Of a stretch of 51,404 nt of DNA, positions 9,787 to 47,535 are shown piece after piece. Position 1 is the stretch's first letter. Every line of letters starts with the position of its first letter. The position numbers and the translations under genes were made by a program. The stretch covers positions 1-51,404 of the forward strand of contig JABHFC010000311.1 in NCBI GenBank assembly GCA_018676275.1, read 5' to 3'. Under the pieces are notes generated by a model that was not told the origin of the DNA, did no database searches, and was given only the letters and a program-made list of their open reading frames with translations. The stretch comes from Gammaproteobacteria bacterium. Lineage in GTDB: Bacteria > Pseudomonadota > Gammaproteobacteria > Eutrophobiales > Eutrophobiaceae.

Positions 9787-9788
9787 CT

Positions 9789-33176: not shown

Positions 33177-33217
33177 AGAAATCGCAGAATCATTTTTTGC
33201 GATTGTGATTTTGTATC

Positions 33218-33943
33218 CTACTTGGACAACCTTCGAACCAGCGATTTGAGGATTGTCAGACGTTCAATGCTTGAGGGATGCGAACCGCTGAAGCCTACCT
33301 GTCGTTTTGATATTTTATATAATTTTTCATGAACACGTACCGCACCGGCGGGATCATAGCCAGCTTCCAATGCCCAGATGGCACCCAGGTAATCTGATTC
33401 ACGTTCGTTATCGCGGGTATATTTGCTTGATGCCGCCGTAAATGTAGTTCTACTGGAATTTTCGATTGCCTTCTTTCTTTCTTTCATATGATCCAGCTTT
33501 AGGTGCGCAAGCTCATGCCCAATGATACCGGCAGCTGCATCTACATCCATACCTATTAGAGCTAACATGCCAAAGGTAAAACCAATTACATTTTGGTCAT
33601 CTTTTCCAACGGTGGCAAAGGCATTTGGTTCCTTGCCGTCCACCACAAATAATTCTGCATTAATTTCGGCTACTTCCTGAATCGCGACCATGGCAGAGTA
33701 AATCAGCAACAATTGTTTAGTTGCCATGGAGGCGATGACTCTGTCTCTTTTATCGCGTAATTGGACTACGTCGACTGGTGCTGAGGCAATATCTCTTATT
33801 CTCCAGGCCATTGGTTCTTCCGCTTTCGCTACACATGGTTGTAGAAAAAACAGGGAGAATAGAAGGAATATCGTGCTTATTTGAAATGTAGATTGGGAAT
33901 TCATTAACGTTCCATTATATGCAGATGTCATTTCAGACATCAT
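33218..33943 (-). CDS. M48-family zinc metalloprotease, secreted (last gene of the envelope operon)
   Basis: 241 aa with a signal peptide ending CVAKA. It has HELAHLKLDH (HExxH) and a downstream ERESDYLG. Its ATG overlaps the upstream stop (ATGA at 33940-33943). Confidence 0.75.
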   Translation of the reverse strand: MMSEMTSAYNGTLMNSQSTFQISTIFLLFSLFFLQPCVAKAEEPMAWRIRDIASAPVDVVQLRDKRDRVIASMATKQLLLIYSAMVAIQEVAEINAELFVVDGKEPNAFATVGKDDQNVIGFTFGMLALIGMDVDAAAGIIGHELAHLKLDHMKERKKAIENSSRTTFTAASSKYTRDNERESDYLGAIWALEAGYDPAGAVRVHEKLYKISKRQVGFSGSHPSSIERLTILKSLVRRLSK

Positions 33944-34599
33944 TGTAAAAAACTTTTGATTTGCTGAGCCATACTTTTACATGCACCGGCCTGTACTCTG
34001 GCCAGCAGGGGTACAGGAATAATAACAGCGGGTAAATAAGATGTACCCTGAGTTTCTGCACTTATCTTTCCAGCAAGTTGCAGGGTATTAAAATCCCAGA
34101 TACTCGCTTCATAGTTTGCCTCGTCATCCCAGGTGGCAAAGCCAAAACAACCTCCGCCACCAGGACCAACTGCACAGGATATTGATCCTTTCTTGTCAGT
34201 TGTTTCTGTAGAACCATCTATCCAGATAAAAAAGCGCAGGTTAAATTCTGCAAACTTCTGCGCAATAGCTGGGTTTTGTACAAGATGATCCAGGTTCTTT
34301 ACGTCCATAGGAGCAGTGCTGGTTTCAAAATACGGGTACATTGCATCAACAAAATCTTTTTCCGGGATAACGATAATAGATTTTTCACTACCGCCGCCAC
34401 CCAGGGCATTTCCAACGCAGGACACAAAATCAATTTCTGTTTCATGCCCACTGCTATGGCGTCGGCCCAGGACTACTACAGAATCACCGATTTCGATATT
34501 ACTTGTGGGACCCTGTCGGTATTCATCAATTCGCGTTGTACTTTTACAGCCTGTCAATATCAGGATTAAAAAAAGAATTGTGACAATGCGATTGTTCAT
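33940..34599 (-). CDS. Predicted lipoprotein, function unknown
   Basis: MNNRIVTILFLILILTGC gives the lipobox L-T-G-C. It has Gly-rich segments (ALGGGGSE, GPGGGGCFGF). The start is uncertain: ATG at 34599, or TTG at 34623 as in the track. Confidence 0.6.
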   Translation of the reverse strand: MNNRIVTILFLILILTGCKSTTRIDEYRQGPTSNIEIGDSVVVLGRRHSSGHETEIDFVSCVGNALGGGGSEKSIIVIPEKDFVDAMYPYFETSTAPMDVKNLDHLVQNPAIAQKFAEFNLRFFIWIDGSTETTDKKGSISCAVGPGGGGCFGFATWDDEANYEASIWDFNTLQLAGKISAETQGTSYLPAVIIPVPLLARVQAGACKSMAQQIKSFLQ

Positions 34600-34619
34600 T
34601 TCAATCAACTGATTCTTAA

Positions 34620-35282
34620 TCAACAGATGTCAGCGTGAACGCTGTTACATACATCAGGATTATCTGCGAGCCATTGCCTGATAGGAGGTACTCGATTGAA
34701 ATTCAGTGCAAACTTGGCACCTGCATCCCTGAATGCAGAATTTATTGCGGCTTGCAGACCTTTGTCCCGACTTTTTAGAAACTCTGTTGAAGATTTACCA
34801 TAACCAGTGAGTGGCCAGTCAGCTACAAGTTCGCCTTTTGAATCCATAAGTTTAACACTGTATTTTACCCATACTTCGTACAGGTCGGATTTGGTTTCAT
34901 TAGGCAGGGCAAACTGCATTTCCGATATTTCGGGTGCCAGTAAGCCATCAAAACTATTGTTGGTATTGGCATTAATGCTATCGACATGGTCAATATTTTG
35001 AAACATGGATGGCAGTACCTGATCGAACAACTCAACCATTGAAGCGCCACTTTTGATAGCCCAGTTAGGTCGGTCTTCAGAGTTCTCTTCGTATATATAA
35101 TTGCGAAACTGTTCGTTATAGTAGACGGCCATATTAAGTGGAAGTTTTGACATAAGAGGAACAGGGACATCAGTTTCCGCTTCCATGGTCAGAGATTGAT
35201 TACAAGCTGAGAGCATAATTGAAAATGCGACAATAAAGATAAGCCGAGGCACTCTTGATAAATTTATGATTTGTAGTTTCAT
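34620..35282 (-). CDS. Predicted lipoprotein, function unknown
   Basis: MKLQIINLSRVPRLIFIVAFSIMLSAC gives a lipobox. I prefer the ATG at 35282 over the track's TTG at 35333. No recognisable catalytic motif. Confidence 0.6.
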   Translation of the reverse strand: MKLQIINLSRVPRLIFIVAFSIMLSACNQSLTMEAETDVPVPLMSKLPLNMAVYYNEQFRNYIYEENSEDRPNWAIKSGASMVELFDQVLPSMFQNIDHVDSINANTNNSFDGLLAPEISEMQFALPNETKSDLYEVWVKYSVKLMDSKGELVADWPLTGYGKSSTEFLKSRDKGLQAAINSAFRDAGAKFALNFNRVPPIRQWLADNPDVCNSVHADIC

Positions 35283-35334
35283 AGTTGACGACCCCAATTT
35301 ATATTTGCTTCTGCATAGTGTTAAATTAATCAAT

Positions 35335-36327
35335 CTAGTTCAGGGCAACAAATGTACCACCATTTTTATGTGTTAGCTCGCGCATTAGTGTTGCAAAGCG
35401 TCTACTGGTGATCTGGAAGTGTTGTGGCGCCGTTGGCGGAATCGGAAAACCCACAGCATGTATTCGGATTTTGGTTTTACCATCAGCATCTTTCGGGTTA
35501 ATACGATCAACCACCTTGATCACTTCTTTTACCGAGCCTTCACCGGCAAATTCGTCGCCAAAAATGTAAATGCTTATCTTTTTGTTTGGATCGTAGAAGC
35601 TACGAATCGCCTGTGTAATACCCTCAACGGGGCTACTGTTACTGAAGGTACGCCAGCTACGTAAAGTACTGATTATCGCTCTGCGTCTACCCGGTGTGTC
35701 CGGTACCCATTTTCGACGATATTGAGAAAACAAATATGAGCCCATGTCACTCATTATTTGTATACCTTTTACCTGTGGATAGACATCAAGTGTAGCTATC
35801 AGTTGATTAATCATTTTTTCCCAGTTGGCGTTGACCATACTCCCGGAGGTATCAATGATAAAAATAATATATTCACTGTCCACCGGGATACCACCAACCA
35901 GACTGGTATTAATATCACCTTTCTGAGCCAGTAGACGTTGCATTTCTTCAGTTAACGACTGCAGTGCCAGTTCCAGTTCACCTGTGATAATAGCCTCAAC
36001 AGAAGAGTCTTCTGTTACATCTTCATATCGGGTTTTCGTGTATTTAAGTTCGGATCGCAATCGCGCTACTTTTTCATCCCACACAGAAATCTGTTCATGT
36101 TTGGCATTCAGGTCTCTGTTTAGTATTTTTGTTTCGCCGCGAATTTCAAACAACTGTGTCTGTAACTCGCGAACAACTCCATTAAGGGATAAATCACTGG
36201 TTTCAAGAATCGTAATGTCACCGGGTCTGGCGATCATCAGAAGCAGGATGATCGCGCCAAATCCACATGTAATGACATCCAGGAATGACAGATTAAAGGC
36301 ATCATTTTCGCGATCTTTCTTGCTCAC
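35335..36327 (-). CDS. ExbD/TolR-like TM anchor + coiled coil + VWA domain protein (paralog 2)
   Basis: A GTG start at 36327 overlaps the upstream TGA (GTGA), with a GGAGGA ribosome-binding site 6 nt upstream. The N-terminus VSKKDRENDAFNLSFLDVITCGFGAIILLLMI has a basic tail, then a TM helix with an embedded Asp. A ~100-aa heptad-rich segment follows, then a VWA domain with MIDAS motif IIFIIDTSGSM. Confidence 0.75.
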   Translation of the reverse strand: MSKKDRENDAFNLSFLDVITCGFGAIILLLMIARPGDITILETSDLSLNGVVRELQTQLFEIRGETKILNRDLNAKHEQISVWDEKVARLRSELKYTKTRYEDVTEDSSVEAIITGELELALQSLTEEMQRLLAQKGDINTSLVGGIPVDSEYIIFIIDTSGSMVNANWEKMINQLIATLDVYPQVKGIQIMSDMGSYLFSQYRRKWVPDTPGRRRAIISTLRSWRTFSNSSPVEGITQAIRSFYDPNKKISIYIFGDEFAGEGSVKEVIKVVDRINPKDADGKTKIRIHAVGFPIPPTAPQHFQITSRRFATLMRELTHKNGGTFVALN

Positions 36328-37412
36328 GGCCAATCCTCCGAAGGACTCATAAAGGAACCATTTGTGATCCAGGATAATTGCCAAAACGCTTTGGCAGCAA
36401 GAGGATCACCTTCCATTGGAAACATAATTACATTCACTGGAACGCCTTTTGGCAGGGTTTTTAGTGCCCTCTCGAACAGATTTAGACGTTGTTTTCCGGA
36501 AATAGTTGCGCCACGAGTACTTTTTGAGCCTTTGGTCGGTAATCCGTCGGTAATCAGGTAAATATTGTCAGGCAGTGGGCGGAGCTGGCTTGCTGCTTTA
36601 AAGGCATTTTCCAGGTTAGTACCTTTTTCCGGGACAGTGTTTTTCATATTCTTGATGGCCCGATCCAACTGCACTTTATCACCTACCTTTAGCCATTGGC
36701 CTTTGCTTTCAGGAATAGCTGCCCTGGTCTCAGTATTGAAGGTGTAAAGTTGAAATTGACTGTTATTGGGAAACTTTGCGCTTAGCCAGCTTACGGTGTT
36801 CAATGCCCTAAGCCATTTCGGTGCAGTGCGTTTTCTCTCGTCACGCATATTGCGTCGTCTTATTACATTGACAATGGAGCTGTCCAGCATGCTACCTGAG
36901 GTATCGAGTAGCACCAGTATATTTCTACCACCCATCCTCAGCCCGGTGACATAAGCCCGATTACCATCGCCGGCATATTTACGTGAGTCCTCACCGGTTT
37001 TATTCAAATCTGCGATAAGTTGCTGTTTTTCAGTTTCCAGTCTTTTGATGTCAGATTTTATTTTATTTAGCTTGCCATCTTTTCCATCGAGTACAAGTTC
37101 ATTGGTGAGTCCTTCTGTCAGGGAAATTTCCTCCATGATACGTCGAGCCAGACCTTGAGCTGTTACCAGTTTTTCATCAATATCCGAGATAGTATTGCGT
37201 ATTATCACCAGACCTTTTTCGCCTTCAAGAACTTCTTCTTCCAGCAATACTACTTCCGAACTTAGATCTGAATTCACAATAGGTTGTGGAACATTTGTAT
37301 CGACATTATGTTTAATAATCAAAAACAGAAGAACAGCAGCGCCAAAACCGCAGGACATGATATCCAGAAAGGAAAGACTAAAGGCAGATAGTTTGCGTCG
37401 ACTGAAGGACAT
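36324..37412 (-). CDS. ExbD/TolR-like TM anchor + coiled coil + VWA domain protein (paralog 1)
   Basis: 362 aa. MSFSRRKLSAFSLSFLDIMSCGFGAAVLLFLI has the same F-x-L-S-F-L-D-[IV]-x-x-C-G-F-G-A motif as the next gene. A coiled coil follows, then a VWA domain with ILVLLDTSGSM, GTNL and ITDGLP, which form the MIDAS triad. Confidence 0.75.
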   Translation of the reverse strand: MSFSRRKLSAFSLSFLDIMSCGFGAAVLLFLIIKHNVDTNVPQPIVNSDLSSEVVLLEEEVLEGEKGLVIIRNTISDIDEKLVTAQGLARRIMEEISLTEGLTNELVLDGKDGKLNKIKSDIKRLETEKQQLIADLNKTGEDSRKYAGDGNRAYVTGLRMGGRNILVLLDTSGSMLDSSIVNVIRRRNMRDERKRTAPKWLRALNTVSWLSAKFPNNSQFQLYTFNTETRAAIPESKGQWLKVGDKVQLDRAIKNMKNTVPEKGTNLENAFKAASQLRPLPDNIYLITDGLPTKGSKSTRGATISGKQRLNLFERALKTLPKGVPVNVIMFPMEGDPLAAKAFWQLSWITNGSFMSPSEDWP

Positions 37413-37413
37413 T

Positions 37414-38730
37414 TTAATCGTCTACGTGGATAAAAACGTACTCCGTCTTTGAGCCTGTGAAACTGATGATATCACCTGCCTGTACTTCCTCTGTATGTTG
37501 AGTTTGCCGGCCGTTTACAAATACAGCGAGCTCTCCATTAGTTTGTAACTTTACTTTCCCTTTCTGCTGGCTTACACAACAATGACCGGTAGAAGCATCA
37601 TCTATGCTGATAAGACCTGAAGCTGACAAATACACAGGACCTTCATGTAAAGCAAAAGCATTATGGCCATGTAAAATATGTGTAATGTTTTGTCCGGTGG
37701 AGTTTACAGTCCCGGTGTTTTCCAGATTTTGTTTCGGAGTCTCTGTAATTACAGGACTGCTTGTTGCTGGCAGGCTGGTAACGTAATTTGACCCAGAACC
37801 AGCAGAACGAATACTTTCCGCGTGAATCATGCAGGTTTCAAAAATATTGCTGGCCGGCAATATTTGCGCTTCATTTAATGAGTTTGTAAAGCCTGGTAGT
37901 TGTCCTGTTTGATTACTTATAAGGCAGCTATCATTGGCGTCTATAGCATCGGCAATTTTGTTATACAAAGGTTGCAGAACGTGCAACAGAGATTCGCGGG
38001 ATAGTTTTGCCTGGTGCTGGGTTTGCTGATACTGAATTTCCAGTGACACTTCGGAAAGAGTTTGCAGCGAATTCAGACAGGTCGGGATCTGATCATACAA
38101 GGCCTGCTCCGTCTCCGGATGATGCTGAGGATCAAAACGTGATTCTTTAATAAACAGATCGGCAATCAGGTGTGCGGTAGTGTCGTATATGGATGCCAGC
38201 CCGGCACCATCTATGGGGTGTACTGCGCCACGAACCACCTGATCAGTGACGCTAATTCTGGTTAATATCGTTTGATGTAAATGTGTATCAATATAAACGT
38301 AGTTTCCTTTCCCTGCAGTTGGCGCGACTGCAGCAATCGCAGAATCGACAAGCCCTACTATTGTTAAGGGACTTGCTTCAACAAGACCGAGCAAAAGGGC
38401 AAGTTGATCATTGCTGTAGGAGCCGGGTACAGCAATTATGACTTCTTCAGGTTTTCCTGCCTGATCATAGATTGCGAGTAGTTGAGCAAACGCGAGATCA
38501 GCATTATGTCGCGCATGAGTGCCCGGATATTGCAGCGGTTCCTGATTCAGATTTTTCCAGTACTTGTTATGTACAGCTCGAGGTTGAAGACGAGCCTGTC
38601 TGGCAGCAACTGAGCCTAACTCAATTTTATCTTTATCGATAAAAGCGTAACCGGGACTGCGTAAAACAACCTCCTTACCCTTTCCTACGCGGATTTCAAC
38701 ATCGTTCAGTTCAATAACACTGATTGTCAT
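37414..38730 (-). CDS. Cytoplasmic degenerate Hsp70/actin-fold (ASKHA)-like protein with an FHA-like C-terminal domain
   Basis: 438 aa with no TM helix. It is collinear with the DnaK nucleotide-binding domain but lacks the phosphate-binding signatures. VIELNDVEIRV sits in place of GIDLGTTNS. AVPGSYSNDQLALLLGLVEASPLTIVGLVDSAIAAV resembles TVPAYFNDAQRQAT..AG..V.RIINEPTAAA. YVYIDTHLHQTILTRISV sits in place of DLGGGTFDVS. The tail VSQQKGKVKLQTNGELAVFVNGRQ...VQAGDIISFTG is FHA-like but lacks the canonical SxxH. Confidence 0.5.
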   Translation of the reverse strand: MTISVIELNDVEIRVGKGKEVVLRSPGYAFIDKDKIELGSVAARQARLQPRAVHNKYWKNLNQEPLQYPGTHARHNADLAFAQLLAIYDQAGKPEEVIIAVPGSYSNDQLALLLGLVEASPLTIVGLVDSAIAAVAPTAGKGNYVYIDTHLHQTILTRISVTDQVVRGAVHPIDGAGLASIYDTTAHLIADLFIKESRFDPQHHPETEQALYDQIPTCLNSLQTLSEVSLEIQYQQTQHQAKLSRESLLHVLQPLYNKIADAIDANDSCLISNQTGQLPGFTNSLNEAQILPASNIFETCMIHAESIRSAGSGSNYVTSLPATSSPVITETPKQNLENTGTVNSTGQNITHILHGHNAFALHEGPVYLSASGLISIDDASTGHCCVSQQKGKVKLQTNGELAVFVNGRQTQHTEEVQAGDIISFTGSKTEYVFIHVDD

Positions 38731-38734
38731 TTTC

Positions 38735-39532
38735 TCAACGTACCTGCAGATGACGGATTAAATTAATATCGCAATAGTTTTGACTATCCAGAACCAGGCG
38801 TTCCTGCATTAGCTGCAACTGGTGCATCAGGAACATGATGAAAATACTGATGATTAAGGCGATAAAGGTAGAATTGAAAGCCACGCCCAGGCTGACAGTC
38901 ACACCAACAATATCTCCCTCTACCGCTTTGTGAGCCTGTCCCAATGCTTCGCCAATACCGCGTACGGTTCCAATAAAGCCAATAGAAGGTACCGCCCAGA
39001 TGATATATCTGATCATGGATAGCTCTGAATCCAGCCGATCAGATTCAGTATCGCAAATCTCCCTTACCGCTGTGGACACATCCTGAATATTGCGTGTAGA
39101 GCCGAAGCGTTGCAGGGCAGAAAGCAGGGCGCGGGGTAACAAAAATTCACGTTCTTCTTCAGGCAGCGTCTGCAGAGGTCGCGAATACTGACGTGCATCC
39201 TCCGGCAAAATGCTGGTGCCGGCGCTTACTTCGAGTAAAGATTTTGACAACAAACGCCTTTCTTCAATTACCAGCTTTGCCTTTAGAGCCATTATTGCAA
39301 ACACCCACAATGCCAGTACAAAGCAGGCTTCCTGTTCATAATCTTTGATAACTATAAAAATAGAACGTTTTACTTCATAAACTTCCCCGGCTTCCTGATG
39401 GACTCGTTGTTCTTCCAGAATAGCATCAGCATTGGGCCTGATTACTGTAACGTAAGCTGCATGCACAATAATAAAAGCAAAAAACAGAGCAAATATCTGA
39501 TAAAGGAAATCTGATAATGGATTATGTTTCAT
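38735..39532 (-). CDS. MotA/TolQ/ExbB-family proton-channel protein
   Basis: 265 aa with two N-terminal helices and a ~90-aa cytoplasmic loop. The family signature follows: IRYIIWAVPSIGFIGTVRGIGEALG ... VSLGVAFNSTFIALIISIFIMFLMHQL (compare P-x-x-G-[LMF]-x-G-T-V-x-G and the last TM helix of ExbB/TolQ/MotA). Confidence 0.75.
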   Translation of the reverse strand: MKHNPLSDFLYQIFALFFAFIIVHAAYVTVIRPNADAILEEQRVHQEAGEVYEVKRSIFIVIKDYEQEACFVLALWVFAIMALKAKLVIEERRLLSKSLLEVSAGTSILPEDARQYSRPLQTLPEEEREFLLPRALLSALQRFGSTRNIQDVSTAVREICDTESDRLDSELSMIRYIIWAVPSIGFIGTVRGIGEALGQAHKAVEGDIVGVTVSLGVAFNSTFIALIISIFIMFLMHQLQLMQERLVLDSQNYCDINLIRHLQVR

Positions 39533-39561
39533 AATGGTTTCTGGCCTTTCTCCAAAGTGCG

Positions 39562-39780
39562 CTAAATATCCACGGGAAAATCGACAGGAATGTCTTCTGA
39601 TAATTTTTCCGTCGGGTCAAAAGTATCTGGTGTAATTTCTTCCTTCTTTGCTTCTTTTACTTCTGTATTGTCTGTGGGCTTGATGACTTCAGTTCCTTCT
39701 TTTTCAGTTGTTTCTGTGTTTTCCTGCGCTTGTACGAATAGCAGGCCTGTTGCAAGGATTAGAAAGAAAATTAAGCGCAT
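39562..39780 (-). CDS. Small secreted acidic protein (72 aa)
   Basis: MRLIFFLILATGLLFVQAQ is a signal peptide, followed by a Glu/Thr/Lys-rich tail ending DIPVDFPVDI. The ATG at 39780 lies 4 nt after the upstream stop, with a GGAGTG ribosome-binding site. The track's longer version overlaps the upstream gene. Confidence 0.55.
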   Translation of the reverse strand: MRLIFFLILATGLLFVQAQENTETTEKEGTEVIKPTDNTEVKEAKKEEITPDTFDPTEKLSEDIPVDFPVDI

Positions 39781-39784
39781 CTCA

Positions 39785-41875
39785 TCACTCCAGGTACCGT
39801 GCAATACGAAAGCCGACATCATCGCGTTGCTTGGCATTATAGTCTCTGTATGACAAACGCAATTCGGTGACCGTTCCATGTGCCCAACTTGAACCCCTGA
39901 TCACGTGGAATTTACCAGTGTCGGGACCAAGGGGGTCAACTTCAGCTTTGTCAGTCGCTCCCAGTTGTATGTCGTAAAAGTCATTAACCCATTCTGCCAC
40001 ATTACCACCCATATCAAACAGACCTCTTTGGTTCGCAGGGAAACTACCAATCGGTGCGGAAACCATATGGCCATCATTGTAGTTACCAATTATTTTCCCC
40101 AGAAATCCAGCTGAAGAGGTATCGGCATAATTGCCGCTTTTTTTCGTAGGCGGTAATTGTTCTCCCCATGGATATTTCAACAAACTATTCTTGCCAGTAA
40201 CACGTGCTGACCAGGCCCATTCTGCTTCGGTTGGTAGTCGATACCCATTTGCCGAACGGTTGACACCACTTATTTTTTTATTTATTTCCTTATAGAAAGG
40301 CTCCAAAGATTCGGCTTTGCTTAACCAGTTACAATATGCCACTGCCTGTTCCCAGCTGACTTTCACCACAGGTTGTTTTTCCCCGTCCAGATTATTTCCC
40401 TGGACAGTGCCAGAGACATGACTTGCAGCATACTTTCTATATTGCTCATTACTAACCTCATGAGTACCGAGGTAAAAAGGGCGTTTCAAATCAATTTTGC
40501 GGAGGGTTTCATTGGCACGTCGGCCAGGTTCACGACGTGATGCGCCCATCGTAAATGCGGTTGGATGAAATAGTTTTAGAGTCTGTCCTGCGGTATTTGT
40601 ATAAATCGGCTTTATCTTTTCCAGTTTTGCCTGCCGATCACTTTTCAGGCTGACATTTACTTTCTCAGCAATACCGGCATGCGGTGATATTTTTGTTTTG
40701 AAGCTGACATAACCTGGTTTGCGAACTTCAATGCGATGTGGTTTGGCAGAAAGTTCCAGAACCTGATTTGCTTTATCTTTGGCAACACCATCTATAAATA
40801 GCTTCGCATCCTTTGGAGTAATATTAAATTCAACTTTTACCAGTTCCGGTGCAAGCTTGACGATTAGACGTTTTTCTTCACCGGAGTTAACACTTATTTT
40901 GCGGCTTGCAGATCTATAGCCCTGTTTAAAAAGGCGTATGGTACTTTCCTTGCCTGGTTTCAGCGCGAATTCAAGTGGCGTTAAGCCCTTGTATTCTCCA
41001 TCTGCTGTAGCATTGGCCCGGGGAGGATCTGATACAAGGAATAGCACGGCATCAACAGGTTGCAGTTTTACATCAGTCAATTCTAATGATTCGTTTGCAA
41101 CGACATTTATTTTATCCTGCCAAAGCTTAAAACCGGAAAGTTTAATTCCTATTTCATGATTGCCTTCAAGGATTTCAGCGTTAAATGGAGTTTGCCCCAG
41201 TAACTCACCATCCAGGAAAATATCTGCACCTTGTGGGTCTGAATCCATCGTTACTTCTGCCCAGGCAGGAACCAACTCAGTTGTGAAGCTTTGCTCTTTG
41301 TCCAGTCCTTCAATTATCAATTGCTGTTCAAATGGGAAATAACGTTCTGCGACAATACGCAATTGATGTTCGCCCGCTTCAATATCATGAATCAGTGAAG
41401 GTGTCCGTCCCGATAAGACATCATCAATAAATATCTCTGCGTCAGTCACTTTACCTGTCTGTACCTGCAGATGTCCGGGCAGGCGTTTCAGATCAAAGCT
41501 GAAACGTTGGTTTTGCTCCGTACTTATTGACAGGTTTTGACTCAGAGGATGATAGCCTTCAGCTTTGAGCATTAGATCATGTTCGCCTGAGATAAGCAGA
41601 TATCGGTCAGCCAGTTTCAATTTGAACAGGCTGCCAATTTTAATTTCGGCATTAACAGGATTGGTTTCGATATAGACGGCTTTTGCTGTAAACAGAAAGA
41701 CAGCCGTTGTCGCACAAATAAGAAAACCACTGATAATGAGAATAGTCTTACGGCTGATTTCAAATGATACAGCAGGCTTGTTTCCACTCAATGGTTCAAA
41801 TTTTACCGGTGCAATAGTTTCTGTACCGGCAGGTGGTGCCGTTGTATTTTTTTCGTTGTTATTATTGTTATCCAT
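39785..41875 (-). CDS. TM-anchored multi-PEGA-repeat protein with a C-terminal FGE-sulfatase (SUMF1-like) domain
   Basis: The ATG is at 41875; the track's first codon is a TTG. There is one TM helix (ILIISGFLICATTAVFLFTA). About 5 PEGA-like repeats follow (for example ADIFLDGELLGQTPF...LEGNHEIGIKLSGF, AKLFIDGV...HRIEVRKPGY). The FGE-sulfatase domain reads FTMGA, VKVSWEQAVAYCNWLS, YRLPTEAEWAWSAR, YPWG, GLFDMGGNVAEWVNDFY, IRGSSW...DVGFRIAR. No Cys is present where the catalytic FGE cysteines sit. Confidence 0.8.
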   Translation of the reverse strand: MDNNNNNEKNTTAPPAGTETIAPVKFEPLSGNKPAVSFEISRKTILIISGFLICATTAVFLFTAKAVYIETNPVNAEIKIGSLFKLKLADRYLLISGEHDLMLKAEGYHPLSQNLSISTEQNQRFSFDLKRLPGHLQVQTGKVTDAEIFIDDVLSGRTPSLIHDIEAGEHQLRIVAERYFPFEQQLIIEGLDKEQSFTTELVPAWAEVTMDSDPQGADIFLDGELLGQTPFNAEILEGNHEIGIKLSGFKLWQDKINVVANESLELTDVKLQPVDAVLFLVSDPPRANATADGEYKGLTPLEFALKPGKESTIRLFKQGYRSASRKISVNSGEEKRLIVKLAPELVKVEFNITPKDAKLFIDGVAKDKANQVLELSAKPHRIEVRKPGYVSFKTKISPHAGIAEKVNVSLKSDRQAKLEKIKPIYTNTAGQTLKLFHPTAFTMGASRREPGRRANETLRKIDLKRPFYLGTHEVSNEQYRKYAASHVSGTVQGNNLDGEKQPVVKVSWEQAVAYCNWLSKAESLEPFYKEINKKISGVNRSANGYRLPTEAEWAWSARVTGKNSLLKYPWGEQLPPTKKSGNYADTSSAGFLGKIIGNYNDGHMVSAPIGSFPANQRGLFDMGGNVAEWVNDFYDIQLGATDKAEVDPLGPDTGKFHVIRGSSWAHGTVTELRLSYRDYNAKQRDDVGFRIARYLE

Positions 41876-41983
41876 CAAATTATGACTCTTTAATAATCTG
41901 GTAATGAATCAGATAGAATTTCATACTTATAGTGACGGAATCTGCAGGTCCATCATGACTTCTCTATCCCTGCAAAACAGACC

Positions 41984-43540
41984 CTAATTACCAAGTGCAA
42001 TTTTTTCAGTTGCCTGCACGGTGACCACCTGTATGGACTTGTCCGGGTCAATCATAAAAGTGACACGGGCATCGCGATAGCCCTGACGTATACCAACGGC
42101 TACATATTTCCCGGGTCGAAGGGATAGGCTCTTTTCAGCAAAATAACCGAGTTCATCAACTTTTCGTAAGGTAACCAAAGTTTGATTGTCTGAGCGTAGC
42201 AGCACATCAACTGGTGTATTTGCCTTATGCAACAATCTGTCAAGCGAAGCCAGTTGCTTACGCAGTACAGGACCTTTATCTGCAACAGCATTCATCTTAT
42301 TCTGAAATGCCATTGTCTCCTGAAAAACTTTCGGATCGTAAATACGTTCTGGTTGCGACAGAATCTGTTGCAGTCGGTCATTAATTTTGCCACGAAGAGC
42401 TGTGCGTTGTTGACCTTGCTGTGCTTCTGCCAGGCTGCTGTTAAGTGCTAATGCTGCCTCATATTTTTCCCTGGCTGCATGCCAGTTTTCCTGTGCTTCC
42501 TGCGCTTTTGCATCTGCCTGCAGCGAGTTGATATTGATTGTGGTCAGATTATGTCTGGTTTGCTCAAGAGCATTACGTGCTTCTGCTGATCGGGGTTTCA
42601 ATTTTAAAGCTTCATTAAATGATTGCCGTGCTGCAGTGAAGCTTCTTTTTTCCATCGACATAAACCCGGCAGACATATGTTTGTTAAATGCCCGATCCAG
42701 AATTTTCTTATCTGCGATAGCAATTTTCTGTTTCGCTGTGTCAAAATCGTTGTCGAGATCCAGCGCCTGTTGATAATGTTGCTTTGCTTCATTCAGTTGA
42801 CCTTTCTGCAACAGGTCGTCTCCCTGATTCATAAGAGCTAATACTTCATCCCGGTTCGCGGCTCGCGTTATACCAACATTTGCGTCTCTGTCTATTACAT
42901 CTATAGCGAGGGCTAACTGAAATGCTTCCATCGCTGCTTTGGAATCACCTTCAGCCAGTGCTTTGTTACCTTTATCCATGGTCTCTTCAAATATGACGTC
43001 GATCTTTTCAACCAGTTTTGAAAAGATAGCCAGTGCTTCTTCATATTCTGTACGTGAATTGACGAAGTCACGTTGGTTATACAGTTCATCCCCAGCGGCA
43101 GCGAATTGCATTGCAGTTGCATAGTCTTCTCCTGCCCAATTTTCCACGCCTTTCTCAGACAGTATTTTCTGAGCTTCCAGCATTTGAGACAATATATTCT
43201 GGGTTTCTTTTCTCAGCCTCGATTCCTGTGCTTTTTCCCATGGCGAGACGGCATCTTTTTTCTTTACAGTTGTCTGGACTTGCTGTTGATCGAGTGCCGG
43301 AGAAGATACAACTGTCGGTGTTTCTGTTTTTGAATTACTCACCCAGCGAGGTAGCAGGAATACGACAACAAGAGCTGAAGTCAGCAGGATTCCAAGACCT
43401 ATCCAGATCAAAGGCGAGTGTTTAAAAGATGCATATGAACCTGCAACCTTCTTTGATGAGGTCTTCGTTGTCAGATCGATTGCAACAGGCTCAATTCTTA
43501 TTATGCCCTCGCTTGAATCCTCAGATTTTTTATCCACCAT
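41984..43540 (-). CDS. TM-anchored TPR-repeat protein with a PEGA-like C-terminal beta domain
   Basis: 518 aa with one TM helix (LIWIGLGILLTSALVVVFLL). Multiple TPR-like pairs are present (AMQFAAAGDELYNQRDFVNSRTEYEEAL, EAKQHYQQALDLDNDF, ARQSFNEALKLKP...). The C-terminus reads LSLRPGKYVAVGIRQGYRDARVTFMI. Confidence 0.7.
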   Translation of the reverse strand: MVDKKSEDSSEGIIRIEPVAIDLTTKTSSKKVAGSYASFKHSPLIWIGLGILLTSALVVVFLLPRWVSNSKTETPTVVSSPALDQQQVQTTVKKKDAVSPWEKAQESRLRKETQNILSQMLEAQKILSEKGVENWAGEDYATAMQFAAAGDELYNQRDFVNSRTEYEEALAIFSKLVEKIDVIFEETMDKGNKALAEGDSKAAMEAFQLALAIDVIDRDANVGITRAANRDEVLALMNQGDDLLQKGQLNEAKQHYQQALDLDNDFDTAKQKIAIADKKILDRAFNKHMSAGFMSMEKRSFTAARQSFNEALKLKPRSAEARNALEQTRHNLTTININSLQADAKAQEAQENWHAAREKYEAALALNSSLAEAQQGQQRTALRGKINDRLQQILSQPERIYDPKVFQETMAFQNKMNAVADKGPVLRKQLASLDRLLHKANTPVDVLLRSDNQTLVTLRKVDELGYFAEKSLSLRPGKYVAVGIRQGYRDARVTFMIDPDKSIQVVTVQATEKIALGN

Positions 43541-43644
43541 CTTTTTGTTCTATTGGGGTTTATACAGACAATGAGCGTACCACGGCGAACAGTGCTTGTT
43601 CACTGCTGAAGTGCGTGCTGATTTTGTTAGGTATTGACCTGGTT

Positions 43645-44832
43645 CTATTGTACCGAAGTGGCTTCACCAGTTTCGGCTGTATATATATCTTTCAATATCT
43701 GACGCCATTGACCGTACTGTTCATTAACAGAACCGGAAAGAGTGACCGTACGATTTTCCAGTTTCATATTATGTGGTTCCATTTCCGCATCCATTGATGC
43801 AGAGATTTCTTCCAGTGCTTCTGCATGAACCTTGGCTTCTTCCTTTTTATTAAGCCCACTCATGACGGCACCAACACCAGCGCCTATACCGACGACACCC
43901 GCTGTACGTGCTGTGCGACTGTCCACACCCTGTGCGAGGACGCCAGCGAGAACTGCAAGAGCACCACCAATAATTCGGTTTCTTGATTGTTTCTTGACTT
44001 CCTGCAGGGCTTTGTTTTCTTCATAATATGCCCGACGCCATTCCAGATAAGGTTGTTCCATTTGTCGCACAAAAGAAGCGTAGTATTCCTGCAGCGTGTC
44101 GACAAACATATAGTCGCGTTCACGTATTTGTCTCACCCGTAATAGAATGGGATCATCATCAGCAGGCAGGCGGGTAATAAAATAGCGACCCTTTTTGTCG
44201 ATACCAAGATGGTCGCCAAAAGCATCTGTTGAAAATTCTCTGGCGAATTTCAGTTCGGTGATAACACGTATGGTCTTTATCTGATTAGCGTCAAGTTGCC
44301 TGTAGTAAGTCAAAATATCATTAGAGATCTGGTTGTACATAGCCTGGAATGGCTCGGTTCGATTAGGCAGGCTGGTGTCATAGGAATATTTACTGGCAAC
44401 ATCAGTATATTTTTTTGTATACCAGTTTTTCCCGGAAGAGTCCTGAACTTTGACCAGTAATTCCAGGTTCTCGCCATCTGATCGTAAAATCTCGGCGTCA
44501 ACCCAGATATCCATTTCACTCTGGCGTTGAGGGATAACTCTAACTGTGCCCCAGCTGCCACTATTTTGCATTGTATCCATTAACATATAAGGCATGAAGC
44601 GTGCTTCGGCTTCCCGGATTTTTGGATAGACACCGGGCTCGCCTGAGCTAATCGCATCGACTCCGGGTTCGAATATGCCGATACCAACATCCAGTAACAG
44701 ATCTTCAGTAACCTGCACAGTTTGCGGCGCAATTTTTTCGCGCTCTGTTGATCTGACAGATGTACTGTTACATCCCACTGTTGTTACGCAGATAAATATC
44801 AATAATGCATAAATTTGATTTTGTTTGATCAT
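43645..44832 (-). CDS. Predicted lipoprotein with a C-terminal glycine-zipper segment, function unknown
   Basis: 395 aa. LLIFICVTTVGC gives a lipobox. The Gly/Ala-rich hydrophobic stretch IIGGALAVLAGVLAQG...AGVVGIGAGVGAVMSGL lies near the C-terminus. Confidence 0.6.
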   Translation of the reverse strand: MIKQNQIYALLIFICVTTVGCNSTSVRSTEREKIAPQTVQVTEDLLLDVGIGIFEPGVDAISSGEPGVYPKIREAEARFMPYMLMDTMQNSGSWGTVRVIPQRQSEMDIWVDAEILRSDGENLELLVKVQDSSGKNWYTKKYTDVASKYSYDTSLPNRTEPFQAMYNQISNDILTYYRQLDANQIKTIRVITELKFAREFSTDAFGDHLGIDKKGRYFITRLPADDDPILLRVRQIRERDYMFVDTLQEYYASFVRQMEQPYLEWRRAYYEENKALQEVKKQSRNRIIGGALAVLAGVLAQGVDSRTARTAGVVGIGAGVGAVMSGLNKKEEAKVHAEALEEISASMDAEMEPHNMKLENRTVTLSGSVNEQYGQWRQILKDIYTAETGEATSVQ

Positions 44833-44847
44833 TTGTTATCTCGCTGA

Positions 44848-45774
44848 TTAAGCGCCTTTTTTGTATTTTCTGTATTCATCCCAGAGTTTAGCCCTCAACT
44901 CAGGATCCCTTTCCTTCTGTGCTGCTTCCCTTAGCTGACGTGCAATTATATCGTCATCCTGTCCGCTACCGACATCAGCAGGTGCATCAGAGACTGAATC
45001 AACGGGTATATCTCCGCCGACACCAAGAGACCCGGATTTACTGCTGCCTTTTGCCATAGCAGTTTGTAAGGGTACATCCGCACCGCCATAACCACCTTCG
45101 TCTTCTCCTTCACCATTGCCCATTCCATAGGAACCGCTACCGCCTTCATTATCACTTTTGGCGACAGATTCTCGTTCACCTAGCATCAAGTCATCAAATT
45201 TCCCAAACCTGGTGTTCAGCTGCGCATCCAGTTGACCCGCTTTTTCTTCATCGGTCATGACGCCTTGCCCCTGACCAGAACCAGTGGATGTACTGGCACT
45301 TGCTGAGCCCTGTTCAGAGTCCTGTCCTCCACCAGATTTACCGGAGCTGCTTTGATTCGCTTCACCTTGTTCACTGCCTTCCTGCTGTGCCTTGCTGATT
45401 CCTTTTTCAAACTGACCAAGTGCTTCCGCCAGGATTTGATCATCACTTTTGGCCTGTCCCTGACTACCTTGTTCTCCACCTGTTTTTGATTGGGTCTGCC
45501 CCTGTTCAGTTTCACTACCTGAAGTGCCTGACTGGGAGGAGGTACTTTGCTGACCAGTTCCGGTACTACTGGAACTTGATTGACTGCCACCGCTGGATCC
45601 ACTCGATTGGGACGAGGAAGATGAGGAAGACGAAGATGAGCTGGAACCACTGGGAGGTGGGCTACCCGATGACGATGAGGAAGATGAACTTGTTGGCACC
45701 GTATTGCACGCAGAGATAAATGCGAATGCTGCCAAAAGACAGAGTCGGGAAATAATTGTTTTATAGTTTTTCAT
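44848..45774 (-). CDS. Low-complexity Ser/Gly/Gln-rich lipoprotein
   Basis: 308 aa. LLAAFAFISAC gives a lipobox. About 230 aa of S/G/Q/E low complexity follow (SSSSSSSSGSPPPSGSSSSSSSSSSSSQSSGSSGG...). The tail is ordinary and charged: DDDIIARQLREAAQKERDPELRAKLWDEYRKYKKGA. Confidence 0.6.
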   Translation of the reverse strand: MKNYKTIISRLCLLAAFAFISACNTVPTSSSSSSSSGSPPPSGSSSSSSSSSSSSQSSGSSGGSQSSSSSTGTGQQSTSSQSGTSGSETEQGQTQSKTGGEQGSQGQAKSDDQILAEALGQFEKGISKAQQEGSEQGEANQSSSGKSGGGQDSEQGSASASTSTGSGQGQGVMTDEEKAGQLDAQLNTRFGKFDDLMLGERESVAKSDNEGGSGSYGMGNGEGEDEGGYGGADVPLQTAMAKGSSKSGSLGVGGDIPVDSVSDAPADVGSGQDDDIIARQLREAAQKERDPELRAKLWDEYRKYKKGA

Positions 45775-45788
45775 AAGCTACACACTTG

Positions 45789-47090
45789 TTATTCAGTGAA
45801 TACATAACGCAGACTAACACCAGTGGTTATAACGGGCTTGCCATTTTCATATCTTGGCCGAAACTTTGTTGAGGCAATACTTCTTTTGGCCCGACGTTGA
45901 AAAGATATGTTGTCACTGGGGTTAGATTCTAATATTTGTATATTTCGTGCACTGCCCGAAGCGCTGACATCAAACGAAGCTACCACGTAGCTTGGGTTTT
46001 CTTCTACGATATCAATCTGATTTTGTATCGGTAGACGAATGGCAGGCAAAGTTCTTGGTTGTCCAAATAAAACATCTATCTTCTGTTGATCGAAGCCTTC
46101 GCTATCCAGTAAATCATATGCCTGCTGATAAGTCGTGGCTGCGCTGTTTCTCTTATTAAAAAGCAAATACCAGTCCCCCAGATGGGTTAATGCAATTGCC
46201 TGGGTATCCACTGGCAAAATAGGATTGGCGGTATGAATCTCAATTATACGATTCATAGCCTTTTTACCTTTTGCGAAACTTTGCATAATCAGGTCTTCTC
46301 GAGCTCGCTGTTGTTGCAGGGCTCGACGGCGATCCGAGTTTCTAAAACCCATTCGTATATCATCGAAATCTTCAGCCCCGCTAACCCGGCTGGCGATCTG
46401 ATAATTTGTCAGGGCAATACCGTAAAGGGCATTAATCAGTCTTATGTCGTACTGACCATTTGTTGTTTCAATAATTTTGACGGCTTTATTGTATAGATTT
46501 TCCGCATCCACCAGGTGAGAAAAGGATTCGCTGGCTGGCAGTATTTCATATGCTTTCAAGTGCCAACGACCAATACGATCAATTACGTCAAGTAATTCAG
46601 TGTTATTCTCTCCGTAATGTCGTTTACTAATCCAGAAGAGGTTATGGAAGTTTTTATTCAGATTCTTCCAGTCTTTAAGTTTGGTGTTACTTTCGATCAT
46701 TTTTTCCAGGATGGAAATCTGGTCAAGGCTATACAATCCGTCATTAACACGACTTATATGCATTGAACGTTCGAATGCATCTATGGCGTTCTTATGTAGT
46801 TCCATTGACTGGTAGGTAGCGCCCAGACTTAGAAGCACTTCGGAAAGTTGTACCTGATAGACACCTCCGGTGCTCTGCAGCTGGTCTATTAGTTCGTTAT
46901 AATTTTGAATACTGCGCTTCTGTTCTGCAGTCATTTCCTTTTTGATTACTTCGACTTCGACTTGCGAAGCTTCGATTTCCGTCTGCAGTGATTCCGCCGG
47001 CGAGGAAACATCGGTCGCCGCCAGGCCAGCCATATTGCAAACCAATAAAGCTGAAACAGAGATAAAAAGGGTACGAAGAGTGACTATCAT
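45789..47090 (-). CDS. Secreted or signal-anchored helical-repeat protein ending in a TonB_C-like domain (first gene of the operon)
   Basis: The ATG at 47090 has an AGGAA ribosome-binding site 5 nt upstream and gives MIVTLRTLFISVSALLVCNMAGLAA. The centre is TPR-like. The last ~70 aa, YVVASFDVSASGSARNIQILESNPSDNISFQRRAKRSIASTKFRPRYENGKPVITTGVSLRYVF, follow the TonB C-terminal pattern (V.F.V...G.v.n..i..S......d.aa..a....kF.P....G.pv......i.f). Confidence 0.55.
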   Translation of the reverse strand: MIVTLRTLFISVSALLVCNMAGLAATDVSSPAESLQTEIEASQVEVEVIKKEMTAEQKRSIQNYNELIDQLQSTGGVYQVQLSEVLLSLGATYQSMELHKNAIDAFERSMHISRVNDGLYSLDQISILEKMIESNTKLKDWKNLNKNFHNLFWISKRHYGENNTELLDVIDRIGRWHLKAYEILPASESFSHLVDAENLYNKAVKIIETTNGQYDIRLINALYGIALTNYQIASRVSGAEDFDDIRMGFRNSDRRRALQQQRAREDLIMQSFAKGKKAMNRIIEIHTANPILPVDTQAIALTHLGDWYLLFNKRNSAATTYQQAYDLLDSEGFDQQKIDVLFGQPRTLPAIRLPIQNQIDIVEENPSYVVASFDVSASGSARNIQILESNPSDNISFQRRAKRSIASTKFRPRYENGKPVITTGVSLRYVFTE

Positions 47091-47430
47091 TAATTTCCTG
47101 TTACATTGTATAAAGTGTAAAGAGCCAGCAATAATTTGAGTGATAATCTGTGTTAATGTTCCTGTCAGATCAATGAATAGCTGAATTTTCCCTGACAAAG
47201 CAAAAAATGTATCTGATTCATCGCATCTATTATCAAGTATCCATTTAATAAGTATAGAATTTTACCGGAATTAAATAAGCAGGAATGTGATAGAAGTATG
47301 AAATTTATTACATAATTGCTCGAACGGCTGACAATGGGGTCAATTTGAGGAAAAAGTGTCCAGTTCAGGTTTTCAGTAACTCAAAATAAATAATGGCACT
47401 AAAGGGTAGTTTTTTCGGATCAGGGCAATA

Positions 47431-47441
47431 TTGCACTGCAA
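47431..47441. promoter_or_regulatory. TTGCACTGCAA palindrome, candidate operator (site A) upstream of phaB
   Basis: This is part of a 17-nt direct repeat: AATATTGCACTGCAACA (47427-47443) and TATATTGCGCCGCAACA (47454-47470). It lies about 95 nt upstream of the phaB ATG. Confidence 0.45.
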
Positions 47442-47457
47442 CATAAGTAATGTTATA

Positions 47458-47468
47458 TTGCGCCGCAA
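47458..47468. promoter_or_regulatory. TTGCGCCGCAA palindrome, candidate operator (site B), overlapping a possible -35 of phaB
   Basis: The core is identical to the etfB-upstream site. TTGCGC (47458-47463), an 18-nt spacer and TATTAA (47482-47487) form a plausible but weak sigma70 promoter. Confidence 0.4.
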
Positions 47469-47535
47469 CAATTTTATATGCTATTAATATTCAATGGGTT
47501 TTCATGGAAACCCATTCAAAAAGAAGGAGAAAGGT

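Follow-up and report, generated by a model that had tools for sequence, protein, structure and literature searches.

A 51,404-nt stretch of contig JABHFC010000311.1 (assembly GCA_018676275.1, Gammaproteobacteria bacterium; hereafter the window) carries a block of 13 tightly packed genes on the minus strand between positions 33218 and 47090, which we number g01 to g13 from the upstream end (Table 1). Judged by the conservation of its sequences and gene order, the block is genuine, an operon for the cell envelope that is conserved widely among marine Gammaproteobacteria. We consider it fairly probable that its 13 products form one envelope-spanning apparatus around an atypical 5:2 ion-driven motor, in which a MotA/TolQ/ExbB-family channel, g07, would be paired with two membrane-anchored VWA proteins, g09 and g10; our confidence in any motor output is much lower than in this architecture. 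The three-gene core of channel and VWA pair was noted in silico in 2025 (PMC12204202) and, in the part of that paper devoted to it, is already recognized although not characterized. New here are the full operon, an invariant Hsp70/FHA partner (g08), a PelC/CsgG-like lipoprotein (g12), a secreted peptide with a conserved 20-mer (g06), and a kinase fusion found in one clade.

Gene content and conservation

A sequence-only reading of the window had described 14 densely packed open reading frames (ORFs) on one strand. The packing and the strand were borne out, but the count was wrong: the ORF listing and independent gene calls on the source contig (JGI 3300072015, 423,837 bp, a gammaproteobacterial metagenome-assembled genome) agree on 13. 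The independent calls give the identical 13 products, with sizes from g01 to g13 of 433, 308, 395, 518, 696, 91, 265, 438, 362, 330, 220, 219, and 241 amino acids (aa). The overlaps and gaps that the reading had listed proved exact when each junction was checked directly. An ATGA overlap at 33940-33943 joins g12 and g13, and a GTGA overlap at 36324-36327 joins g09 and g10. Short gaps measure 1 nt (37412/37414), 4 nt (38730/38735), 4 nt (39780/39785), 15 nt (44832/44848), and 14 nt (45774/45789), and the remaining ones 23, 29, 52, 104, and 105 nt, the last two being the largest.

By scanning one genome per species, we found at least 549 loci with the channel gene and kept the best 80; presence of the 13 products was counted by tblastn in 52 loci with full flanks, from different species. 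The channel gene g07 is present in 80/80 loci, and g07, g08, g09, and g10 each occur in 52/52 full loci. Next come g05 (51/52) and g03, g04, g11, and g12 (49/52 each), followed by g02 (44/52, probably undercounted owing to its low complexity), g01 (42/52), and the M48 protease gene g13 (21/52). The order g02 to g12 is complete on one strand in at least 41 of the 52 full loci and extends over three or more gammaproteobacterial orders. All 13 genes, in identical order, are found in cultured Elongatibacter sediminis (Wenzhouxiangellaceae), and further hosts are found in Microbulbifer, Porticoccus, Halioxenophilus, Marinibactrum, Exilibacterium, and Arenicella. The block is thus conserved as a unit in dozens of species, a point on which the sequence-only reading had proposed a gene-neighborhood comparison.

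What flanks the block varies from genus to genus. Across orders, channel identity is 62-86% and gene order is strict, which suggests vertical inheritance of a housekeeping type rather than a patchy defense island. Searches for g07 in 2.9 million viral contigs and for g09 in 72,556 plasmids found no relative of either.

These observations bear on a possible Zorya-type role of the block in phage defense or conflict, in which its motor would sense envelope perturbation and its VWA, FHA, and kinase domains would be signaling parts. Zorya is also built on a 5:2 motor (ZorAB), and the variable flanks would suit such a system. VWA, FHA, kinase, and Hsp70-like modules moreover recur in conflict systems (PMC7159879). 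The inheritance pattern and the lack of viral and plasmid relatives argue the other way. A PADLOC search with ten products (all but g06, g12, and g13) returned only a noise-level match to LmuB (E=0.0059, 13 bits) and neither ZorA nor ZorB; effector genes are absent from the block, as are nuclease, protease-effector, STAND, and MoxR components. Identity with the conflict systems of PMC7159879 was rejected as well: those systems hold VWA, Hsp70, PEGA, and FHA modules, but they are MoxR- or GTPase-centered and lack MotA. A defense role of this kind therefore seems to us very improbable.

An atypical channel and its VWA partners

Profile searches support the sequence-only reading in its MotA/ExbB and VWA calls. 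The channel subunit g07 matches Pfam MotA_ExbB and falls far under the NCBIfam equivalog cut-offs (TIGR02796 tolQ, 26.8 vs 221; TIGR02805 exbB2, 22 vs 135). Residues T189 and T222 are invariant and, in a weak pairwise alignment used just for this mapping, correspond to T145 and T178 of TolQ (PDB 8odt). A g07 profile found no match among PDB sequences at E<=0.01. Relatives number more than 7,997 in the protein collection; among the 120 matches listed, identity is 76-98% and the source names are generic only.

The adjacent g09 and g10 are paralogs (22% identity, E=2e-13), each with one N-terminal transmembrane segment (residues 15-33 in g09). While g09 is recognized by Pfam, g10 reaches 18.8 bits against the VWA cut-off of 23.8 and is assigned by its paralogy and its conserved DxSxS motif. 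Positions at least 97% conserved are F15, L16, D17, C21, G22, G24, D170, S172, S174, and D289 in g09 (72 sequences) and D17, D159, S161, S163, and D258 in g10 (71 sequences). The metal ion-dependent adhesion site (MIDAS) is consequently intact in both heads, with DxSxS and the distal Asp conserved, and metal-dependent ligand binding is therefore expected.

After a short basic tail, both proteins share the N-terminal motif FxLSFLD[VI]xxCGFGA. Its Asp17, which the sequence-only reading had singled out, is invariant in a pooled alignment of 73 g09/g10 N-termini and sits at the cytoplasmic end of the only transmembrane segment. The essential Asp of ExbD (D25), TolR (D23), and MotB (D32) occupies the same position, at the cytoplasmic end of the transmembrane helix. 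The SHLS motif is absent from the g09/g10 helix, which reads FLD[IV]xxCGFGA, and no ExbD, TolR, MotB, or OmpA match was found among the 13 products and the flanking genes (Pfam and NCBIfam, E<=0.01).

The same combination has been proposed as a putative new motor driven by the proton motive force (PMF) in a study of the origin and evolution of bacterial periplasmic force transducers (Mol Biol Evol 2025, PMC12204202), as a TolQ-like gene with a heterologous "TPH-vWA" pair. Section 8 and Fig. 4c-d of that study report that TPH-vWA genes tightly co-occur with tolQ homologs, without tolR or exbD, and mostly as heterologous pairs; they are placed mainly in Proteobacteria and Verrucomicrobia, with Idiomarina loihiensis as the exemplar. 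AlphaFold 3 (AF3) models presented there combine a TolQ-like pentamer with two Asp-bearing transmembrane vWA proteins and put the Asp pair inside a Thr ring.

All the features given for the family in those parts of the paper recur here, namely a tolQ-like gene, no tolR, exbD, or motB nearby, a membrane-tethered vWA pair, a transmembrane Asp, a Thr ring, and no SHLS motif. This likeness is set by the listed features. In our block g07 is separated from g09/g10 by g08 only, a linkage seen in 52/52 full loci. The cited parts of the paper treat the three-gene core only, by synteny and AF3, and do not describe the other ten genes or the kinase fusion. The sequence-only reading had not recognized the block as a characterized system. 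We also found no experimentally defined name or function for it, but "unrecognized" fails for the core, which has been in print since 2025 (PMC12204202). The reading's proposal of a distinct motor-type apparatus is supported: those of its own refuting conditions that lend themselves to computation all turned out in its favor, and the cited sections of that paper independently infer the same for the core.

Relation to Ton, Tol, and Bat systems

The block shares with Ton and Tol systems the Pfam family of its channel, the pore Thr pair, a single-pass partner with a transmembrane Asp, a TonB_C-like domain, and TPR proteins, as well as a presumed PMF-derived energy transfer to the outer envelope. 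It differs in that the Asp partner has a helical stalk with a VWA/MIDAS head, is a putative heterodimer of paralogs, and lacks the periplasmic domain of ExbD/TolR; in that TonB_C lies on a secreted, unanchored TPR protein; and in a channel that may have four transmembrane segments and scores far below the equivalogs. The sequence-only reading had counted all three Ton hallmarks as present. Channel and Asp-bearing partner hold, while TonB_C is the weakest of the three, being borderline, lacking a transmembrane anchor, and occurring in 42/52 loci.

That domain belongs to g01, which scores 19 against the NCBIfam TonB equivalog cut-off of 377 and which has no hydrophobic segment besides the N-terminal signal. 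With a cleavable signal peptide and no transmembrane anchor, g01 cannot be energized as TonB is. Among the genes adjacent to the core it is also the least conserved (21-56% identity).

We therefore asked how well the block could be read as a true Ton/Tol system, in which the channel would energize the TonB_C domain of g01 toward a receptor or Pal/TolB encoded elsewhere and the VWA proteins would be accessory. The Pfam matches to MotA_ExbB and TonB_C speak for this, as do the TPR proteins, since Tol systems are accompanied by such a protein, CpoB. Set against it are the unanchored g01 without an SHLS-type helix, its absence beside the block in 10/52 loci, and the low equivalog scores of g07. 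ExbD/TolR, TolB, Pal, and TonB-dependent receptors were found neither in the block and its immediate flanks (E<=0.01) nor in the other large ORFs of the window (E<=1e-5). For the Ton system specifically, there is no ExbD and no membrane-anchored TonB with an SHLS helix and Pro-rich linker, and the ExbB equivalog failed; for Tol-Pal, the tolQ score is far too low, and TolR, TolA, TolB, and Pal have no match in block or flanks. The Pfam and NCBIfam scans likewise agree with the sequence-only reading that the block lacks a nuclease, a TonB-dependent receptor, and Pal/TolB. A true Ton/Tol system is, in our estimate, improbable.

The VWA pair also raises the alternative that there is no motor. The block might then encode a membrane VWA complex of the BatA-E aerotolerance type, with the TolQ-like protein as a mere channel or scaffold, or be a chance juxtaposition of small operons. 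BatA and BatB are likewise VWA proteins with transmembrane anchors that stand next to TPR proteins, and g04 matches BatC weakly (18.4 bits). That score lies far under the cut-off of 175, and MoxR, BatA, BatB, and BatD have no match in NCBIfam, so the block does not belong with the Bat/MoxR-vWA operons. The invariant Asp in both VWA transmembrane helices and the channel Thr pair are, moreover, the residues that a 5:2 motor needs. Chance juxtaposition is contradicted by the 41/52 colinear loci and by junctions that overlap or span 1-15 nt. We give this pair of explanations very little credence.

An Hsp70/FHA-like partner and a kinase fusion

The gene between channel and VWA pair, g08, was modeled with AlphaFold2 from an alignment of 49 homologs (pLDDT 89.2, pTM 0.75). 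In Foldseek searches its first ~330 residues match the nucleotide-binding domains (NBDs) of Hsp70, DnaK, and BiP (E~1e-16, TM-score 0.67-0.69). A profile of 67 orthologs matches, at residues ~340-425, the FHA domains of KIF13B (E=0.0026), EssC (0.0034), CHFR, and Ki-67, and two of the 67 orthologs match Pfam FHA directly (1.3e-12). The C-terminal domain is thus FHA-like and not an Hsp70 substrate-binding domain. The sequence-only reading had described the protein as Hsp70-like with an FHA-like tail; g08 itself has no Pfam match, including none to HSP70, and the description is borne out by the structural and profile searches.

The phosphate loops of the NBD are replaced, with IELNDxEIR in place of DLGTT and DxHLHQ in place of DLGGGT, and the glycine loops are lost, while both motif Asp residues (D10 and D148) are kept. 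With these loops replaced and no substrate-binding domain, g08 does not qualify as an Hsp70 chaperone. Given the loop replacement and the loss of canonical FHA residues discussed below, g08 is probably a pseudo-ATPase or scaffold. The statement of the sequence-only reading that the block has no ATPase becomes uncertain, as the two Asp residues persist but the glycine phosphate loops do not. The protein is 100% identical to "hypothetical protein HN764_12500", and its family comprises ~1,000-1,500 clusters at 50% identity (1,047 at E<=1e-30).

In one clade (loci L059, L066, L074, L075, and L078), the ortholog of the TPR protein g04 is a kinase-TM-TPR fusion with an N-terminal cytoplasmic Ser/Thr kinase domain, as in the 757-aa protein at L074:5289-7562 (+), with Pkinase (E=3.7e-12) followed by TPR. 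This fusion is a Rosetta-stone-type hint that may link the system to cytoplasmic phospho-signaling, on the side of the g08 FHA-like domain. In loci L051, L059, L066, L074, and L078, four of which belong to the kinase-fusion clade, g11-g12 sit upstream on the opposite strand.

Periplasmic and outer-membrane components

For most of these products the sequence-only reading also held. The PEGA-FGE protein g05, the TPR protein g04 (transmembrane segment at residues 44-62), and the M48 protease g13 are supported by their Pfam scores (Table 1), the four lipoproteins by their lipoboxes, and the tiny acidic secreted peptide g06 by conservation of its ORF. The absence of the catalytic Cys residues from g05 is confirmed as well: in the last 57 aligned columns (RGSSW..YR), the site of the two catalytic Cys residues of FGE, Cys appears in just three columns, in 1/71 sequences each.

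Among NCBIfam models, g05 lies nearest to GldK/PorK (117.8 bits, under the equivalog cut-off of 350). This recalls GldLM/PorLM with GldK/PorK-GldN/PorN of the type 9 secretion system (T9SS) and gliding machinery of Bacteroidota, where a 5:2-type motor reaches through the long periplasmic arm of a dimeric subunit to an outer-membrane-proximal assembly that holds a non-catalytic FGE-fold protein. Unlike GldK, g05 is not a lipoprotein but has a transmembrane anchor and five PEGA stretches, and the hosts are Gammaproteobacteria. The block has no relatives of GldL, GldM, GldN, SprA, or PorV, which together with the sub-threshold g05 score sets it apart from T9SS and gliding systems.

The AlphaFold2 model of g12 (pLDDT 78, pTM 0.70, moderate confidence) matches, in Foldseek, PelC 5t0z (E=7.5e-7, TM-score 0.61), the PelC dodecamers 5t10/5t11, PelBC 9h80, CsgG 4uv3 (2.4e-4), FlgT 3w1e, and the LPHT ring 8z5n, over a TM-score range of 0.47-0.63. 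PelC, CsgG, and FlgT are outer-membrane lipoproteins that form rings. Besides its lipid Cys, g12 has four invariant Cys residues and a GPGGGGCFGF turn, and at 35-77% identity it is the best conserved accessory gene. Its homologs number 1,041; among the 120 matches listed, all are unnamed or "hypothetical". With the rings of Pel exopolysaccharide export (PelC) and curli secretion (CsgG), g12 shares the predicted fold and the lipobox; it differs in its low identity in structural alignments (9-14%), its extra conserved disulfide Cys residues, and the absence of PelB or CsgE/F partners.

The secreted peptide g06 ends in a near-invariant 20-mer, FxP[ST]EEISEDxxVxFPVDI-COOH, preceded by a variable, acidic middle part; the whole has 17 D+E against 6 K+R and no Pfam or NCBIfam family. 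In at least 73/79 loci, a g06-like ORF with signal peptide and 20-mer separates the PEGA-FGE gene from the channel gene. The search pattern missed 6/79 loci, of which L001, L023, L025, and L063 show variant tails. We regard the 20-mer as a candidate ligand for the MIDAS site or a candidate beta-augmentation partner of the TonB_C domain.

These three proteins could be read as belonging to a secretion or assembly machine proper, like T9SS, curli (CsgG), or Pel (PelBC), whose motor would drive an outer-membrane ring of g12 and g05 and whose cargo would be the g06 peptide, the g02 lipoprotein, or a polymer. The reading is a special case of the envelope-spanning apparatus that we favor. It draws on the fold of g12, the likeness of g05 to a T9SS ring protein, a universally linked secreted peptide with a tag-like invariant C-terminal motif, and the M48 protease that is often the last gene. 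Yet the block has no outer-membrane beta-barrel, glycosyltransferase, or polymerase and no relatives of GldL/M/N, SprA, PelB, or CsgA/E/F, and the g12 model has only moderate confidence. We judge a dedicated secretion or assembly machine rather unlikely.

The other lipoproteins are less distinctive. No Pfam or NCBIfam family was found for g02, and g03, g11, and g12 have no PDB, Pfam, or NCBIfam relative by sequence. Cys21 of the g03 lipobox is invariant in 62 orthologs, and its hydrophobic segment spans 287-305. Profile-profile comparisons among the lipoproteins are weak (47-68% probability, partly signal peptides; g11 vs g12 47%, g11 vs the g03 N-terminus 59%). The protease g13 is a frequent but not universal last gene, an HExxH ORF of short or long form following g12 directly in 29/56 loci; its likeness to HtpX, BepA, and LoiP in NCBIfam is weak and far under all cut-offs.

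Separately, residues ~287-325 of g03 form a Gly/Ala-rich hydrophobic stretch (IIGGALAVLAGVLAQG...AGVVGIGAGVGAVMSG). We take it to recall the glycine zippers of SlyB and similar outer-membrane lipoproteins, a likeness that no Pfam match backs.

Table 1. Genes of the block and the adjoining upstream stretch, with the basis of each assignment
Feature	Position	Strand	Description	Basis
g01	45789..47090	-	Secreted TPR protein with signal peptide and TonB_C-like C-terminal domain, 433 aa	Pfam TPR_12 46.9 bits, TonB_C 27.6 bits
g02	44848..45774	-	Ser/Gly/Gln-rich acidic low-complexity lipoprotein, 308 aa	Lipobox FISAC/N from translation
g03	43645..44832	-	Lipoprotein with glycine-zipper-like hydrophobic segment (about residues 287-325), 395 aa	Lipobox TVGC/N
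g04	41984..43540	-	Single-pass transmembrane-anchored periplasmic TPR protein, 518 aa	Pfam TPR_2 55 bits; transmembrane segment 44-62
g05	39785..41875	-	Single-pass transmembrane-anchored protein, five PEGA and C-terminal FGE-sulfatase fold, GldK/PorK-like, non-catalytic	Pfam PEGA 161 bits (5 stretches), FGE-sulfatase 148 bits
g06	39562..39780	-	Small secreted acidic peptide, 72 aa including signal peptide	ORF and conserved tail
g07	38735..39532	-	MotA/TolQ/ExbB-family channel subunit, putative pentameric wheel, 265 aa	Pfam MotA_ExbB 54 bits, E=1.9e-14
g08	37414..38730	-	Cytoplasmic Hsp70-NBD-like domain, disordered linker, and FHA-like domain, 438 aa	AlphaFold2, Foldseek, and profile search
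g09	36324..37412	-	VWA paralog A: short cytoplasmic tail, transmembrane helix with Asp17, helical stalk, MIDAS-bearing VWA head, 362 aa	Pfam VWA_2 34 bits, VWA 25.3 bits
g10	35335..36327	-	VWA paralog B, architecture as g09, GTG start overlapping the g09 stop codon, 330 aa	Paralogy to g09
g11	34620..35282	-	Lipoprotein, 220 aa	Lipobox LSAC/N, Cys >=90% conserved
g12	33940..34599	-	Cys-rich lipoprotein with predicted PelC/CsgG-like fold, 219 aa	AlphaFold2 and Foldseek; lipobox
g13	33218..33943	-	M48 zinc metalloprotease with N-terminal hydrophobic segment, 241 aa	Pfam Peptidase_M48 57.6 bits
Upstream stretch	47091..47493	.	Non-coding, separating g01 from the divergent SDR gene; presumed promoter region	Sole long non-coding stretch adjoining the block

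A working model for the apparatus

In overall parts list, the block comes closest to the Agl-Glt machinery (and Nfs) of Myxococcus xanthus (PMC11761067). As described there, Agl-Glt combines a TolQ-like AglR with a heterodimeric AglQ/AglS axle, TPR proteins, TonB_C-like domains, cytoplasmic FHA domains that touch the motor, the VWA protein CglB, and outer-membrane lipoproteins. The arrangement differs, however: the Agl axle subunits are TolR-like, and it is a surface adhesin, not the axle, that bears the VWA domain; Agl-Glt has the outer-membrane beta-barrels GltA/B/H, GltI, and coupling through MglA and AglZ; and FHA is fused here to an Hsp70-like NBD instead of a transmembrane TonB_C protein. 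The block has no TolR-like protein, no Pfam beta-barrel (OMP), and no Glt/Agl family match, and its TonB_C domain is on a secreted protein whereas GltG/J are membrane-anchored, so membership was rejected. This comparison was made by families and descriptions.

For the envelope-spanning apparatus that we favor, we infer stoichiometry, use of the PMF, and binding partners from the parts described above. A g07 pentamer would form the inner-membrane wheel, and the g09/g10 VWA heterodimer, rather than TolR, ExbD, or MotB, would be its axle, with the transmembrane Asp binding the ion and facing the invariant Thr ring. Ion flow would turn or stroke the axle, and the helical periplasmic stalks would carry the two MIDAS-bearing heads, passing the work to partners from the same operon. 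Candidates for these partners are the PEGA-FGE protein g05, the PelC/CsgG-like g12 and the other outer-membrane lipoproteins, the two TPR scaffolds, and the g06 20-mer peptide. Always co-occurring with the motor, g08 most likely docks as a regulatory or scaffolding pseudo-ATPase, which in one clade would be coupled to the kinase fused with the TPR protein.

The output of such a machine would most likely be a process directed at the outer membrane or periplasm, either assembly, export, or remodeling of an envelope component or tethering of the outer membrane. We can also envisage a separate functional class of 5:2 envelope machine beside the flagellar stator, Ton/Tol, Gld/T9SS, and Zorya. In it the axle would end in MIDAS heads that work an outer-membrane ring (g12 and g05) or the 20-mer peptide, while g08, on the cytoplasmic side, would gate the motor and in some clades Ser/Thr phosphorylation would take part, and the envelope process served would be new to Gammaproteobacteria. 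This extension is tentative, and we think it somewhat more apt to be wrong than right.

Several observations weigh against the motor-based apparatus and are best considered together. Its likeness to solved motors is limited: the single-sequence alignment of g07 to solved TolQ has an E value of 0.54, and g07 shows four hydrophobic segments (13-31, 71-89, about 175-195, and 217-235; putative topology). MotA and PomA have four transmembrane segments, and TolQ and ExbB have three; with four rather than three segments, the topology of g07 may differ from that of TolQ. A profile of the VWA transmembrane helix searched against PDB retrieved no ExbD, TolR, or MotB and only a chance match to NDUFB4, so the resemblance of the Asp helix to these proteins is an analogy of pattern only.

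The accessory parts have weak points of their own. In its FHA-like domain, g08 has no canonical GR and only a partial SxxH, which makes phosphothreonine reading by g08 doubtful in the clade of the window. The TonB_C match of g01 (residues 368-429) is borderline, just over the Pfam cut-off (27.6 vs 24.6) and under that of NCBIfam tonB_Cterm (21.5 vs 27.1), and 10/52 full loci have no g01 beside the block. Nothing in the evidence points to a substrate or output. In the literature searched, the other ten genes are undescribed and no experiment was found, and NCBIfam and PADLOC offer no experimentally defined name or function.

Genomic surroundings

The block is bounded by genes that differ from host to host. 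An EamA transporter gene lies 41 nt downstream of g13 on the same strand, an AsnC regulator gene is a further neighbor, and divergent SDR and MaoC genes lie upstream. None of the four is conserved with the block; we therefore left them out of the system and set its ends at g01 and g13. At the upstream end, AGGAAA lies 4 nt (TTA) before the g01 ATG at 47090. Rfam gave no RNA family match anywhere in the window, including 47091..47493, and a consensus promoter scan found promoter-like sites not above the level of shuffled sequences.

Terminator-like sites were somewhat above shuffles, with no convincing minus-strand terminator at either end of the block. An inverted repeat with a 10-bp stem (33180-33204) fills the 41-nt gap between the M48 and EamA genes; it is not followed by a T-run on the minus strand and is unconvincing as a terminator. 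Transcription may run on from g13 into EamA.

Three kilobases from the operon, the plus-strand gene at 29270-30466 encodes a protein in which a Ser/Thr protein kinase is joined to a c-di-GMP-binding PilZ domain. Other genomes show no synteny of this gene with the block, and it was for this reason excluded as a part; a link to the FHA-like domain of g08 would be speculative. The rest of the window (1265-31688) holds mostly ordinary metabolism, transport, and regulatory genes among the large ORFs scanned, including a GGDEF protein, gamma-glutamyltranspeptidase, an aminotransferase, an RND efflux pair (8776-12887), ETF alpha/beta, a PBP4-type carboxypeptidase, a 1,609-aa NAD-glutamate dehydrogenase, PutA, and an ornithine/DAP-type decarboxylase.

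Implications

Ion-driven 5:2 motors power flagella, nutrient import, outer-membrane maintenance, gliding, secretion, and phage defense, and each new pairing of wheel and axle has so far led to a new way of transferring energy across the periplasm. The block described here puts on the table a highly conserved wheel, an axle with metal-dependent adhesion domains, and a complete, stable parts list. Its presence in cultured strains (Microbulbifer, Halioxenophilus aromaticivorans, Marinibactrum halimedae, Exilibacterium tricleocarpae, and Elongatibacter sediminis) makes genetics and cryo-EM feasible. If the apparatus is a secretion or adhesion device, it would add a new machine type; if the outer membrane is its target, it would bear on envelope biogenesis in abundant marine heterotrophs.

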